A stretch of 48,596 nt of DNA from an uncultured Gammaproteobacteria bacterium (GTDB lineage Bacteria; Patescibacteriota; Microgenomatia; UBA1406). Shown here piece by piece: positions 23,819 to 31,600 of this stretch (positions within the stretch are counted from its first letter, which is position 1; every line of letters starts with the position of its first letter). The stretch covers positions 1 through 48,596 of the forward strand of contig CAYHPU010000001.1 in NCBI GenBank assembly GCA_964358525.1, in the 5' to 3' direction. The notes under the pieces are model-generated. The model was not told the origin of the DNA and searched no databases. It saw only the letters and a program-made list of their open reading frames with translations. The position numbers were made by a program, and so were the translations under genes.

Positions 23819-25153
23819 ATGGACAAGGATTTATTGTGGAAAAAGACGCTTGATGAACTCGGGGTTGATATGCCCGAGTTAACGTTTCAAATGTTTTTTA
23901 AGCACACGTCTGCCCACGAGCTCAACGAAAACACATTAACTGTTGGGTGCCCAAACGACGGGGTTTGTTTTGTTTTGAAAAACAAATACTACGACGCCGT
24001 TTTTAATACACTTCAGAAATATAGTCGTATTCCTATAACAAAAATCATATTTGTGTCTAATCACCAGAACACCCGACACAGGGGAATTATATCCGCCGAA
24101 CTTTTTTCTAATATTGGTCCTGGCGCAGAAGAGAAAATTCGCGCGGCGGGTTTAAATAATCGGTTTACTTTCGAAAATTTTGCGGACTCCGTTTCTAATC
24201 AACTCGCGCACGCCGCACTTCTCGCTGTTAGCCAAAACCCCGGAAAAGCATACAACCCTCTGTTTTTGTGGGGGGGTGTAGGTGTTGGTAAAACCCACCT
24301 TATTCAGGCGCTTGGAAGAAAAATCATTGAAACAACGGGACAAAATGTTCTTTACTGTACTATGGAAGATTTTACAAATAACCTTGTTGAAGCAATAAAA
24401 AACAAATCAACCGCGCCGTTTCGAAAAAAATACCGCGCGTGTGACGTTCTCCTTATTGACGATATTCAGTTTGTTTCTGAAAGGGAGTTTATCCAAGAAG
24501 AACTCTTTTACACTTTTAACAAGCTCCAGGCCGCCGGAAAACAGGTTATTTTTACCTCAGACAAGCCCCCGCGCTCCATAAAAAAAATCGAAGACCGCCT
24601 GGTTTCCCGTTTTTTGAGCGGTCTGGTTATTGATATACAACAACCAGACTACGAACTTAAGACGGCAATTCTCCTTCTTAAGGGACGGGAAAGAGGGCTG
24701 TCCTTAGACGCCGAAACGGCCAGGCTTATTGCCGCCCACATTGAAGAACTACGCGAGCTTGAGGGGTTCTTATTACGGCTTGTTGCACTTAAAGAGTCCG
24801 GGGCTACTATATCAAAAGATTCCGTTGAGCGCATCCTTCTCCAAAACGGCCTGCAACCGGTAAAACGGAATGACCCGCGAGACATATTGCGCGTCGTGTG
24901 CAAGGAAATGGGTGTTTCATTGAAAGATATCAGGGAGAAGGGCCGCAAAAAAAAGGTTGCTCTTGCGAGGCACGTTGCGATGTATTTTTTAAAGACACTC
25001 ACCTCTTTTACCTATGAAGAGGTCGCACGAATGGTAGGAAAAAAGGATCACACTACCGTGATGCACGGGGTTCAAAAAGTTATTAACACGGCCTCTACCG
25101 ACGAAGCGCTTCGTCACAACCTGGAAAGGGTGCGGTCCTATTTTAATTCATAG
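23819..25153 (+). CDS. dnaA: chromosomal replication initiator DnaA
   Basis: AAA+ Walker A GGVGVGKTHL, LLIDDIQF, and C-terminal domain IV with ...VALARHVAMYF...HTTVMHG. Confidence 0.95.
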   Translation: MDKDLLWKKTLDELGVDMPELTFQMFFKHTSAHELNENTLTVGCPNDGVCFVLKNKYYDAVFNTLQKYSRIPITKIIFVSNHQNTRHRGIISAELFSNIGPGAEEKIRAAGLNNRFTFENFADSVSNQLAHAALLAVSQNPGKAYNPLFLWGGVGVGKTHLIQALGRKIIETTGQNVLYCTMEDFTNNLVEAIKNKSTAPFRKKYRACDVLLIDDIQFVSEREFIQEELFYTFNKLQAAGKQVIFTSDKPPRSIKKIEDRLVSRFLSGLVIDIQQPDYELKTAILLLKGRERGLSLDAETARLIAAHIEELRELEGFLLRLVALKESGATISKDSVERILLQNGLQPVKRNDPRDILRVVCKEMGVSLKDIREKGRKKKVALARHVAMYFLKTLTSFTYEEVARMVGKKDHTTVMHGVQKVINTASTDEALRHNLERVRSYFNS

Positions 25154-29504: not shown

Positions 29505-30011
29505 ATGGAAGAAATGGAAAACAACAATTCAAACCAAGCGTTATTTTTATGGGATGCTCCTATACGATATTTTGAGAAAAAGCCGCCAACATTTGGGAAA
29601 TCTTTAATAGCCCTCGGTATTCTGTTTTCATTAATTGCTTATTTTATTGGCGAACCATTTTTAGTTTTGGTTGTGTGGATGGTTGTGTTTGTTTCTTATG
29701 TAAAAATAACTATCCCCCCACCAAACACACAATATTCGGTAACTACTTTTGGTATACACATTAGTGAGACAATTATTGAATATAAGCACATTCATAGTTT
29801 TGCATATGAAATAAAAAAAGAGGGAAGTGTTCTTCGTTTTTACCTTACTATTACAGGACAACCATTTTTTGTCATACTACCAATGCCCTTTCTAAAAACA
29901 ACAGAACTCTTGACTTTTCTAAAATCACAACTACCTTATTTGGAGCGCGTACCAAAAACAGACGCAGAACGGTTTACCGAATGGGCGGGGAAAACAATAG
30001 GATTAACGTAA
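29505..30011 (+). CDS. hypothetical two-TM membrane protein
   Basis: 168-aa ORF. TATAAT at 29501-29506 suggests the functional start may be the second ATG at 29514 (leaderless). Confidence 0.6.
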   Translation: MEEMENNNSNQALFLWDAPIRYFEKKPPTFGKSLIALGILFSLIAYFIGEPFLVLVVWMVVFVSYVKITIPPPNTQYSVTTFGIHISETIIEYKHIHSFAYEIKKEGSVLRFYLTITGQPFFVILPMPFLKTTELLTFLKSQLPYLERVPKTDAERFTEWAGKTIGLT

Positions 30012-30581
30012 GGAGATTAATCGTTTAACAAACTCTTCAGGAAGCATTTCTGTACACCCAAAAAGCCTGGCCCAGGTACGGAGCCCCGCGTCTGAAGAAA
30101 CGAGACTCGCGTCCCTTTCTCGCGATAACATAATAAGGCCAAAATCCGTTGTAGAGTCTAAAAAACCCTCTCGTGTCGTACGCCTATATTTATCTCGCAG
30201 TGTTCGAAGTGGATTTTCTCCATCATTAAGGGGAGGATTTTTTGCGTATTCTTCTGCCGCACGAAGTCCTTTATATAAGCGTGTTCCTATTTCTGCAACT
30301 AAGCGTTCAAACAGCGTGGCATCAAATGAAAGCCCGGTAAGATTTGGAGATGAAATAGTTAGAACAGACCGCAGAGGAAGAAGTGTTTGAGGTGTACCAT
30401 CAAAAAAAGATTCAAGTTCATGAAGTGCGTCGGGCGTGGTAAGGAACTGTGCCACCTCTTTTGATACAAGGGGGCTAGCGTATGATATAAAAGACTCAAT
30501 AACCGCCTCTTTATTTTCCCCAAGACCTAAATCTCGCTGTAGGTTCACAAAAAAATTAGTATCAATAACAAATTTAATCAT
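30003..30581 (-). CDS. PIN_5-type metallonuclease, candidate protein-only RNase P (HARP, Aq_880-like)
   Basis: 192 aa. N-terminal FVIDTNFF (Asp7), ...[10 protein letters not shown]...LRDKYRR...[33 protein letters not shown], with Asp142, Asp146 and Asp164. Confidence 0.6.
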
Positions 30582-30587
30582 TGAATA

Positions 30588-30596
30588 ATTATATCA
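30588..30596 (-). promoter_or_regulatory. extended -10 (TGaTATAAT) 6 nt upstream of the PIN/HARP ATG
   Basis: Minus strand GTGATATAAT-TATTCA-ATG. No SD. Confidence 0.5.
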
Positions 30597-30619
30597 CTGC
30601 GGTATATAATTCTCACTAT

Positions 30620-31600
30620 ATGACAAAACAAAACCCCAAGCTCGAAGCTGTCCAAGCCGCGATGGATCAAATTAAAAAACAATATGGAAAGGGTGCTATT
30701 ATGCGCCTTGGAGAAAAACCGATTGAAAAAGTAGAAGTGGTTTCGACCGGCATATTTGCGCTAGATGTTGCGCTCGGCGTGGGGGGTTTGCCACGGGGGC
30801 GTGTAGTAGAAATTTTTGGACCAGAAGCGTCGGGGAAAACAACAACGTGTTTATCAATAATTGCTGAGGCCCAAAAAAACGGTGGCGTAACAGCATTTGT
30901 AGATGCCGAGCACGCCCTTGACCCAGAGTGGGCGCGGATTATTGGTATCGACCTAGATAATTTATTAGTATCACAACCAGACACAGGGGAACAGGCGCTT
31001 GAGATTGTTGAGACATTAGTTCGTAGTGGTGGTGTTGACCTTATAGTGGTAGACTCGGTTGCGGCACTCGTTCCCCGGTCAGAGATTGAGGGAGATATGG
31101 GAGACGCTTCAATGGGTTCGCAGGCGCGATTAATGTCACAAGCGCTACGTAAATTGACGGGGATTATGTCCAAATCGAAAACCACCGTTGTTTTTACAAA
31201 TCAAATCCGTCAAAAAATTGGCGTTATGTTTGGAAATCCCGAAACAACACCAGGAGGGCTTGCTCTTAAGTTTTATGCCTCTATTCGCATGGATGTCCGC
31301 CGCATTGAGATTATTAAAAAAGCCGACGCGGTGGTTGGAACACGTGCACGAATAAAAGTAATTAAAAATAAGATGGCACCCCCCTTCAAAGAGGCAGAAA
31401 TGGTAATTACAGCGCTTGGAATAGATCGCTCCGCCTCTGTTTTAGACGCCGCCCTTAAAAAAGGCGTACTAACAAAAAGCGGCGCCTTTATAAAATATAA
31501 AGACAAAACACTTGGTCAAGGAATGGAAGACGCCAAAAAATTACTGGACGACGACAAAAAATTGACGGAAGAATTAAAGAAAGCAGTCCTTCTTGCATAA
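30620..31600 (+). CDS. recA: recombinase RecA
   Basis: [16 protein letters not shown], Walker [10 protein letters not shown], loop regions. I chose ATG 30620. TATAAT (30605-30610) lies 9 nt upstream. Confidence 0.95.

Follow-up and report, generated by a model that had tools for sequence, protein, structure and literature searches.

A protein of the HARP family of RNA-free ribonuclease P (RNase P) enzymes is encoded in a contig of 48,596 nucleotides (CAYHPU010000001.1, assembly GCA_964358525.1), analysed over its full length and here called the window, of an uncultured bacterium from the order UBA1406 of the class Microgenomatia, within the Candidate Phyla Radiation (CPR, or Patescibacteria). 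Setting aside two probable contaminants, neither rnpA, which encodes the protein subunit of the ribonucleoprotein enzyme, nor the RNase P RNA was detectable in this genome, in its order or in a second HARP-bearing family of the class (f20), so HARP is most likely the housekeeping enzyme, and the only RNase P, of a lineage that lost the ribozyme. Very few ribozymes are thought to be nearly universal, and the RNase P RNA is among them. To our knowledge, apart from the hyperthermophilic Aquificaceae and a few Nitrospirae, essentially no bacteria are known to do without it. An earlier note, made by a model from the sequence and its open reading frames (ORFs), had proposed the gene as a candidate HARP and, should rnpA and the RNA be missing, as the sole tRNA 5'-maturation enzyme. 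Our searches bear out the first proposal and support the second.

Sequence and predicted fold place the protein among the HARPs

Profile searches matched the window protein to Pfam PIN_5 (PF08745; residues 3-188 of 192; E-value 7.7e-29; 101 bits against a cut-off of 27) and to TIGR03875 (101.3 bits against 95.3), above both curated cut-offs; COG1458 is another name of this family. All seven sequence matches in the PDB are RNA-free ribonuclease P (E-values 3.5e-23 to 1.8e-15). Taken with the PIN_5 E-value, this puts the match far beyond chance. The family is rare, with 234 clusters (50% identity) at E <= 0.001 among 1.84 billion representatives, and a scan of metagenome contigs with the window protein returned no relative.

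The AlphaFold model, built on 46 homologs, has a predicted local distance difference test score (pLDDT) of 92.2 and consists of a PIN core, a long two-helix arm and a C-terminal helix (Table 1). Foldseek superposed it on the HARPs 8kda (Hydrogenobacter), 7e8o (Planctomycetes) and 8kd9 (Aquifex) with template modelling (TM) scores of 0.89-0.91 (E-value 1e-14), whereas the best non-HARP PIN structures, VapC4 among them, reached 0.33-0.48 on the query. The earlier note had raised VapC- or NOB1-type PIN families as the other possible identity. HARPs are classed in the VapC-like group of PIN domains in the literature, and the generic Pfam PIN model does give a match, at an E-value of only 0.094. 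However, the predicted fold excludes such a nuclease, as it matches HARPs and not VapC or other PINs. A helical arm of 50 residues is present, and the protein is longer than a compact VapC PIN (about 130-150 amino acids). No antitoxin-like gene lies upstream, the neighbours being recA and a membrane protein. A single match per genome with synteny across the family is also unlike toxin-antitoxin modules, which are patchy and multi-copy. A VapC-type toxin or other unrelated PIN nuclease is thus barely conceivable, and we regard the gene as almost certainly a bona fide HARP.

The catalytic aspartates are kept and two Aquifex residues are replaced

A scripted count places aspartates at residues 7, 142, 146, 157 and 164. 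The reading frame, the four aspartates Asp7, Asp142, Asp146 and Asp164 with their spacing of 4 and 18, and the preceding KGLRAAEE (residues 104-111) and LRDKYRR (128-134) are all as the earlier note had read them from the sequence. The resemblance to the Aquifex enzyme, which that note had put forward, also held: length is similar, the arm is present in the model, and D7, D142, D146 and D164 fall on D7, D138, D142 and D160 in the alignment to 8kd9 (Table 2).

Table 2. Residues of the Aquifex HARP and their counterparts in the window HARP. The 8kd9 chain in the PDB alignment is numbered as in Teramoto et al. 2025 (PMC12217051).
Aquifex HARP	Window HARP	State
D7	D7	conserved
D138	D142	conserved
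S139	S143	conserved
D142	D146	conserved
D160	D164	conserved
R102	R107	conserved
R125	R129	conserved
K127	K131	conserved
R129	R133	conserved
R133	R137	conserved
K99	K104	conserved
R109	K114	basic residue kept
E141	T145	not conserved
R94	G99	not conserved

In the Aquifex enzyme, Asp7 is the proposed general base, the S139A and E141Q variants are inactive, and Glu141 is a fifth active-site acid described as highly conserved (PMC12217051). Arg102, Arg125 and Arg129 are tRNA-elbow arginines and Arg94 and Arg133 cleavage-site arginines, and pre-tRNA binding by the R94A variant is poor or lost (PMC12217051). Among 46 aligned CPR HARPs, D7, D142, S143, D146, D164, R101, R129, R133 and R137 (window numbering) are invariant. 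The basic residues on the arm that are predicted to bind tRNA are R101, K104, R107, K114, R129, K131, R133 and R137.

The two replacements differ in their distribution. At position 145, 42 of the 154 aligned family sequences have Glu and most others Ala, Thr, Ile, Val or Pro; CPR is over-represented in this set, to which extra CPR sequences were added by hand. Every CPR-clade sequence of our tree has Ala, Thr, Val, Ile, Pro or Ser there, and none has Glu. Position 99 is Gly or Asn only in the window's family; Arg stands there in the order's other two families and in f20. In the arm loop (alignment columns about 119-140), those two families have about 15 extra residues and same-family relatives about 7. 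The window HARP has none, which brings its length nearer to that of the Aquifex enzyme. With 99.8 bits, its Pfam score is the lowest of the matches from the order; the others reach 116-162.

By analogy with the Aquifex, Hydrogenobacter and Planctomycetes enzymes, our analyses predict a PIN-like metallonuclease of about 22 kDa with an inserted two-helix arm, which would assemble into dimers and then into higher oligomers. In such an assembly, the tRNA would be held at its elbow by the arginine-rich arm of one dimer, while the neighbouring dimer would cut off the 5' leader with two Mg2+ ions at its Asp7/Asp142/Ser143/Asp146/Asp164 site. HARPs form homo-oligomers from dimer to dodecamer through the C-terminal helix. 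In the Aquifex HARP, this helix is needed for the tetramer and higher oligomers and for activity, and terminal-helix deletions of Aq880 abolish activity. As the only RNase P, the window HARP would be expected to be essential. The ribonucleoprotein enzyme would have given way to HARP in an ancestor of the HARP-bearing lineages.

The RNase P ribonucleoprotein in the genome, order, class and phylum

The window's genome is a 1.21 Mb draft in 169 contigs, 93.4% complete. No rnpA (PF00825) and no bacterial or archaeal RNase P RNA (RF00010 and RF00373) was found in it at E <= 1, the condition that the earlier note had set for its second proposal. RF00011 gave only a match of 12 bits over 39 bases, nhmmer with three same-class RNase P RNAs gave nothing at E <= 10, and a motif scan for CR-I/CR-V of the RNA returned loose matches at chance level only (65, 32 and 28). 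A Pfam search for PRORP had no match in this genome and none in control genomes either, and is hence uninformative. The classical rpmH-rnpA pair does not adjoin dnaA (24152-24634 of the window), as that note had also pointed out. rpmH is on another contig (C10), where the next gene is not rnpA and instead an ORF for an Era-like GTPase, named by its N-terminal G1 motif and not by profile search, and yidC on contig C26 has no rnpA ahead of it.

We sampled 61 genomes from the three families of the order (f1-f3), which corresponds to Candidatus Roizmanbacteria by the public records of matching contigs. HARP was detected in 58 of them, with one match per genome, and RF00010 at E <= 0.01 in none. 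rnpA scored above the cut-off in two (G003 and G008), both times on a contig of a few kilobases and adjoining yidC. The rnpA contig of G003 (locus L016, contig C46) bears a second yidC, the other copy being on a large contig. In G008 (locus L015, contig C7), the yidC beside rnpA is atypically long and high-scoring, and short ORFs of the size of rpmH and yidD (no profile) flank rnpA. The guanine-cytosine content does not separate the two contigs from their genomes, whereas the yidC duplication does. Both are probably binning contaminants. In eight single-contig or nearly closed genomes of the order, a search for RNase P RNA at E <= 1 with laxer filters returned only fragments of 10.6 and 8.3 bits.

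CPR RNase P RNAs are easily missed (PMC8172020), so a positive control from the same class matters. In an even sample of class genomes, rnpA was detected in 135 of 151 and RF00010 in 134 of 150, with scores down to about 20 bits; one genome positive for both (G126) is unpublished, and no conclusion depends on it. HARP occurred only in f1-f3 and f20, exactly the families with no rnpA and no RF00010 in this sample. In f20, three of the four genomes have HARP (G077, G131 and G151), and none of the four has rnpA or RF00010. A phylum-wide sample had HARP in 4 of 401 genomes, all from the window's order.

In a FastTree phylogeny, the Roizmanbacteria HARPs fall into a single clade (support 98) whose sister is the clade from f20 (99), and the two are joined with a support of 90. 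This topology is compatible with a single acquisition or with transfer inside CPR. The tree has no root and, outside the CPR clade, no labels, and it points to no particular donor lineage.

Two further observations came from the class sample. Family f17 (G074 and G106) has RF00010 matches at E-values of 1.8e-27 and 8.6e-17 with no rnpA and no HARP detected; its ribozyme may have a strongly diverged protein partner, or none at all. In G084, a genome with the ribonucleoprotein, an open frame of 338 amino acids (contig C4, 42456-42623) matches the C-terminal 56 positions of PIN_5 with 21 bits, below the cut-off, and may be a distant or fused HARP relative.

These distributions bear on the possibility that a highly diverged RNase P RNA, its RnpA lost or unrecognisable, keeps the housekeeping role and that HARP is an accessory or back-up, as in archaea and most other HARP-bearing bacteria. 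HARP is dispensable in archaea according to the literature. CPR RNase P RNAs can be diverged, miss helices and fall below default Rfam thresholds (Lui et al., PMC8172020), only 43 of our 134 class matches reach the gathering score, and f17 shows that the RNA can be present without a detectable rnpA. However, the search that recovered class RNAs at about 20 bits found none at E <= 0.01 in the 61 genomes of the order, the eight closed or nearly closed genomes gave only noise of 8-11 bits, and nhmmer with class RNAs found nothing in the window's genome. Moreover, rnpA and the RNA disappear together, and only in HARP-bearing families. We consider a hidden ribozyme unlikely. That HARP is the only, housekeeping RNase P of this lineage is in our view quite probable.

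Public records name the sources of HARP-matching contigs as Candidatus Roizmanbacteria, Microgenomates or Patescibacteria, mostly from groundwater and also from lakes and other waters. Some bulk submissions are labelled generically as "uncultured Gammaproteobacteria". The sequencing runs that hold the window's locus are groundwater metagenomes from several studies. The habitat is groundwater and no extreme environment.

tRNA genes and the need for 5' processing

ARAGORN detected 38 tRNA genes in the window's genome, mostly solitary. Of the 29 -10-like boxes that could be recognised, 14 stand 6-15 bases ahead of the tRNA 5' end. The distance from promoter to tRNA is not fixed and varies from 0 to 36 bases, so most tRNA transcripts should carry a few extra bases. 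The tRNA-His gene encodes G(-1) and has further bases between it and its upstream -10-like box. The tRNA-Ala(UGC) gene lies 180 bases upstream of the 23S rRNA on the same strand (contig C26, locus L179, 1-2330). The 45 bases ahead of it hold no -10 box, and its closest promoter-like site is about 100 bases upstream. In a closed relative, same-strand tRNA pairs are 23-45 bases apart. Precursors from tRNA-Ala(UGC) and from such tandem arrangements must be cut by an endonuclease at the 5' end of the tRNA.

tRNAs could nevertheless be made with no leader or almost none, as in Nanoarchaeum equitans, which would make RNase P dispensable and leave HARP for other RNA processing, for example of 3' trailers or of an rRNA/tRNA spacer. 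The -10-like boxes close to tRNA 5' ends and the solitary genes fit this explanation, as do promoters very close to start codons in the window organism and the 3'-trailer cleavage activity known for the Aquifex HARP from the literature. The variable promoter distances argue against it, and so do the tRNA-Ala without a nearby promoter, the tandem tRNAs, the bases ahead of tRNA-His and the tRNA-elbow-binding arginines that are invariant in the 46 CPR HARPs. We judge such a change of function to be very unlikely.

The base at -1 is U in 29 and A in 2 of the 38 tRNAs. The closed relative with HARP only has A in 16 and U in 12 of 33; in a relative that carries the ribonucleoprotein, U stands there in 23 and A in 11 of 40. 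Aquifex tRNAs show a preference for A at this position (PMC12439589).

Three side observations concern the RNA genes of this genome. All 38 tRNA genes have C at position 74, and the full CCA is encoded in only 12 (e.g., on contigs C5, C22, C37 and C56); two same-class relatives have C74 in 40 of 40 (9 with CCA) and 33 of 33 (6 with CCA), which suggests a class-wide rule for tRNA 3'-end processing or repair. At L179, no 16S rRNA was found on the contig side that holds tRNA-Ala and the 23S rRNA, and the next gene is a divergent protein gene. Linkage of the rRNA genes may be lost here, a state that has been described in many CPR bacteria. No tRNA-Cys was among the 38 tRNAs, which may simply reflect the incomplete, fragmented assembly.

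Gene neighbourhood and expression

HARP is divergent from recA, in agreement with the earlier note, and 38 bases separate the two start codons (Table 1).

Table 1. Features of the HARP locus in the window.
Feature	Position	Strand	Description
168-aa predicted membrane protein	29505..30011	plus	ORF; convergent with HARP, 9-base overlap with the HARP end
HARP gene	30003..30581	minus	192 amino acids (aa) and stop, ATG start; PIN_5/TIGR03875 family
C-terminal helix, residues 181-191	30006..30041	minus	AlphaFold model
Asp164 codon	30090..30092	minus	aligned with catalytic Asp160 of Aquifex HARP
D142-S143-T144-T145-D146 codons, active-site motif	30144..30158	minus	aligned with Aquifex D138-S139-K140-E141-D142
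Protruding two-helix (spike-helix) domain, residues 88-137	30171..30320	minus	AlphaFold helices 88-114 and 124-137
Asp7 codon	30561..30563	minus	aligned with catalytic Asp7 of Aquifex HARP
Putative divergent promoter region shared by HARP and recA	30582..30619		consensus scan
recA	30620..31600	plus	ATG start; Pfam RecA, E-value 1.7e-128; divergent neighbour of HARP

The consensus scan of the intergenic region found 2 promoter-like sites, against 1.6 expected, and the promoter assignment is suggestive only. The site for HARP reads GTGAGA-17-TG-TATAAT (TG-extended), its -10 element ending 6 bases ahead of the ATG, and the -10 element for recA ends at 30610. The HARP mRNA is probably leaderless, judging from this spacing. 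The -10-like boxes of HARP and recA thus end 6-9 bases from the start codons, and those of many tRNA genes 6-15 bases from the tRNA 5' end, which suggests leaderless mRNAs and very short tRNA leaders in this organism.

The predicted 168-residue membrane protein has no Pfam family. By tblastn, it is next to HARP in each of the 7 loci from the same family, and several loci from the other two families also have it as a convergent neighbour of HARP. The block conserved in the window's family consists of a DUF3048 protein, a 198-residue protein, the 168-residue membrane protein, HARP, recA and a ComF-like protein.

A contig of 212 bases from an aquifer metatranscriptome is identical to 30309-30520, a weak hint that HARP is transcribed. 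RNA-library contigs span only parts of the locus, at a depth of 2, and are no proof of transcription. For most pairs of same-family HARP genes, the synonymous rate (dS) is undefined or has reached saturation, and the comparison is uninformative; where dS is defined, the ratio of the nonsynonymous to the synonymous rate (dN/dS) is 0.10-0.31, an unreliable measure that hints at constraint.

Discussion

Several points weigh against HARP as the only RNase P of this lineage. Thr145 and Gly99 stand in place of Aquifex residues whose E141Q and R94A variants are inactive and bind pre-tRNA poorly, respectively. Four bacterial HARPs whose sequences are conserved showed no activity in vitro as recombinant proteins (PMC12153264). 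Many tRNA genes have a -10-like box just 6-15 bases upstream, so that leaders may be very short, and the A(-1) signature of the Aquifex type is absent and not consistent among the three genomes compared. CPR RNase P RNAs can escape detection for the reasons given above, and absence from a 93% complete draft in 169 contigs means "not found". Lastly, the RNA-library contig that matches HARP may stem from DNA.

Against these points stand the searches across the order and class, and we think it likely that the whole order of Roizmanbacteria, mesophilic and ultra-small groundwater bacteria, together with a second Microgenomatia family, lives without the ribozyme and with a monophyletic clade of HARPs that lack the Glu essential in Aquifex and have no ligase. 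If true, no bacterial lineage with an RNA-free RNase P would be larger. The large mesophilic HARP clade, its variant active site and the fact that no ligase partner was found set this lineage apart from the HARPs studied so far.

The ligase in question is Rnl3 (PF18330). Among HARP-positive genomes, 89% have it, often within 5 kb (Seshadri and Gopalan 2025, PMC12153264). Our search gave only a 12.5-bit match in the window's genome and none at E <= 0.001 in the 61 order genomes. NCBI names CPR HARPs "RNA ligase partner protein". This annotation can be corrected, as these genes sit in genomes in which no such ligase was found. Bacterial HARPs have been described as confined to a few genera or orders from extreme habitats (Seshadri and Gopalan 2025, PMC12153264). 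A replacement in Roizmanbacteria, if true, would count against bacterial HARPs as an adaptation to extreme habitats and against their tie to the ligase.

HARP, sometimes alone, was noted in "unclassified bacteria" (Daniels et al. 2019 and later reviews). The supplementary text of PMC12153264, which should include the genome table, has no entry for Roizmanbacteria, Microgenomat-, Patescibacteria or UBA1406. A full-text literature search combining RNase P or HARP with CPR, Patescibacteria or Roizmanbacteria returned no paper describing a HARP replacement there. An order-wide replacement in cold-groundwater CPR would be an independent natural experiment on why and how a protein replaces a ribozyme, on whether a slow HARP sustains life outside hot environments, and on whether Glu141 is needed for catalysis.

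Comparison with known RNA-free RNase P enzymes

The HARPs of Halorhodospira halophila (Hhal2243; PDB 7og5, E-value 1.8e-15), Thermodesulfatator indicus and archaea belong to the same family. Their hosts keep rnpA/rnpB or the archaeal ribonucleoprotein, and HARP is dispensable there or inactive in vitro, usually accompanied by Rnl3. In the window's lineage, by contrast, neither the ribonucleoprotein nor the Rnl3 ligase was found.

The reference for HARP-only bacteria is the family Aquificaceae, with the Aquifex (Aq880, AaHARP) and Hydrogenobacter (HtHARP) enzymes (PDB 7f3e, 8kd9, 8kda and 8ssf). The window HARP resembles them in length (192 against about 190 amino acids), fold (TM about 0.9) and sequence (32% identity). 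It shares with the Aquifex enzyme the four catalytic aspartates, Ser139, the arginines R102, R125, R129 and R133 (Aquifex numbering) and the C-terminal helix, and comes likewise from a host lineage without detectable rnpA/rnpB. It differs in having Thr for Glu141 and Gly for Arg94, mostly U at tRNA position -1, no Rnl3 ligase gene found, and a host that is an ultra-small groundwater bacterium and not a hyperthermophile.

PbHARP from "Planctomycetes bacterium GWF2_40_8" (PDB 7e8k and 7e8o) is similarly close (TM 0.89, 30% identity), and its source is also an uncultured bacterium of groundwater type. Its solved complex shows the same mode of binding the tRNA elbow. Unlike the window HARP, PbHARP keeps a DSKED motif with Glu and lies outside the CPR clade. 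Eukaryotic PRORP (e.g., Arabidopsis PRORP1) is likewise a protein-only RNase P and a PIN-like metallonuclease with superposable catalytic aspartates. It works as a monomer, with pentatricopeptide repeat and zinc-binding domains, and has an independent origin.

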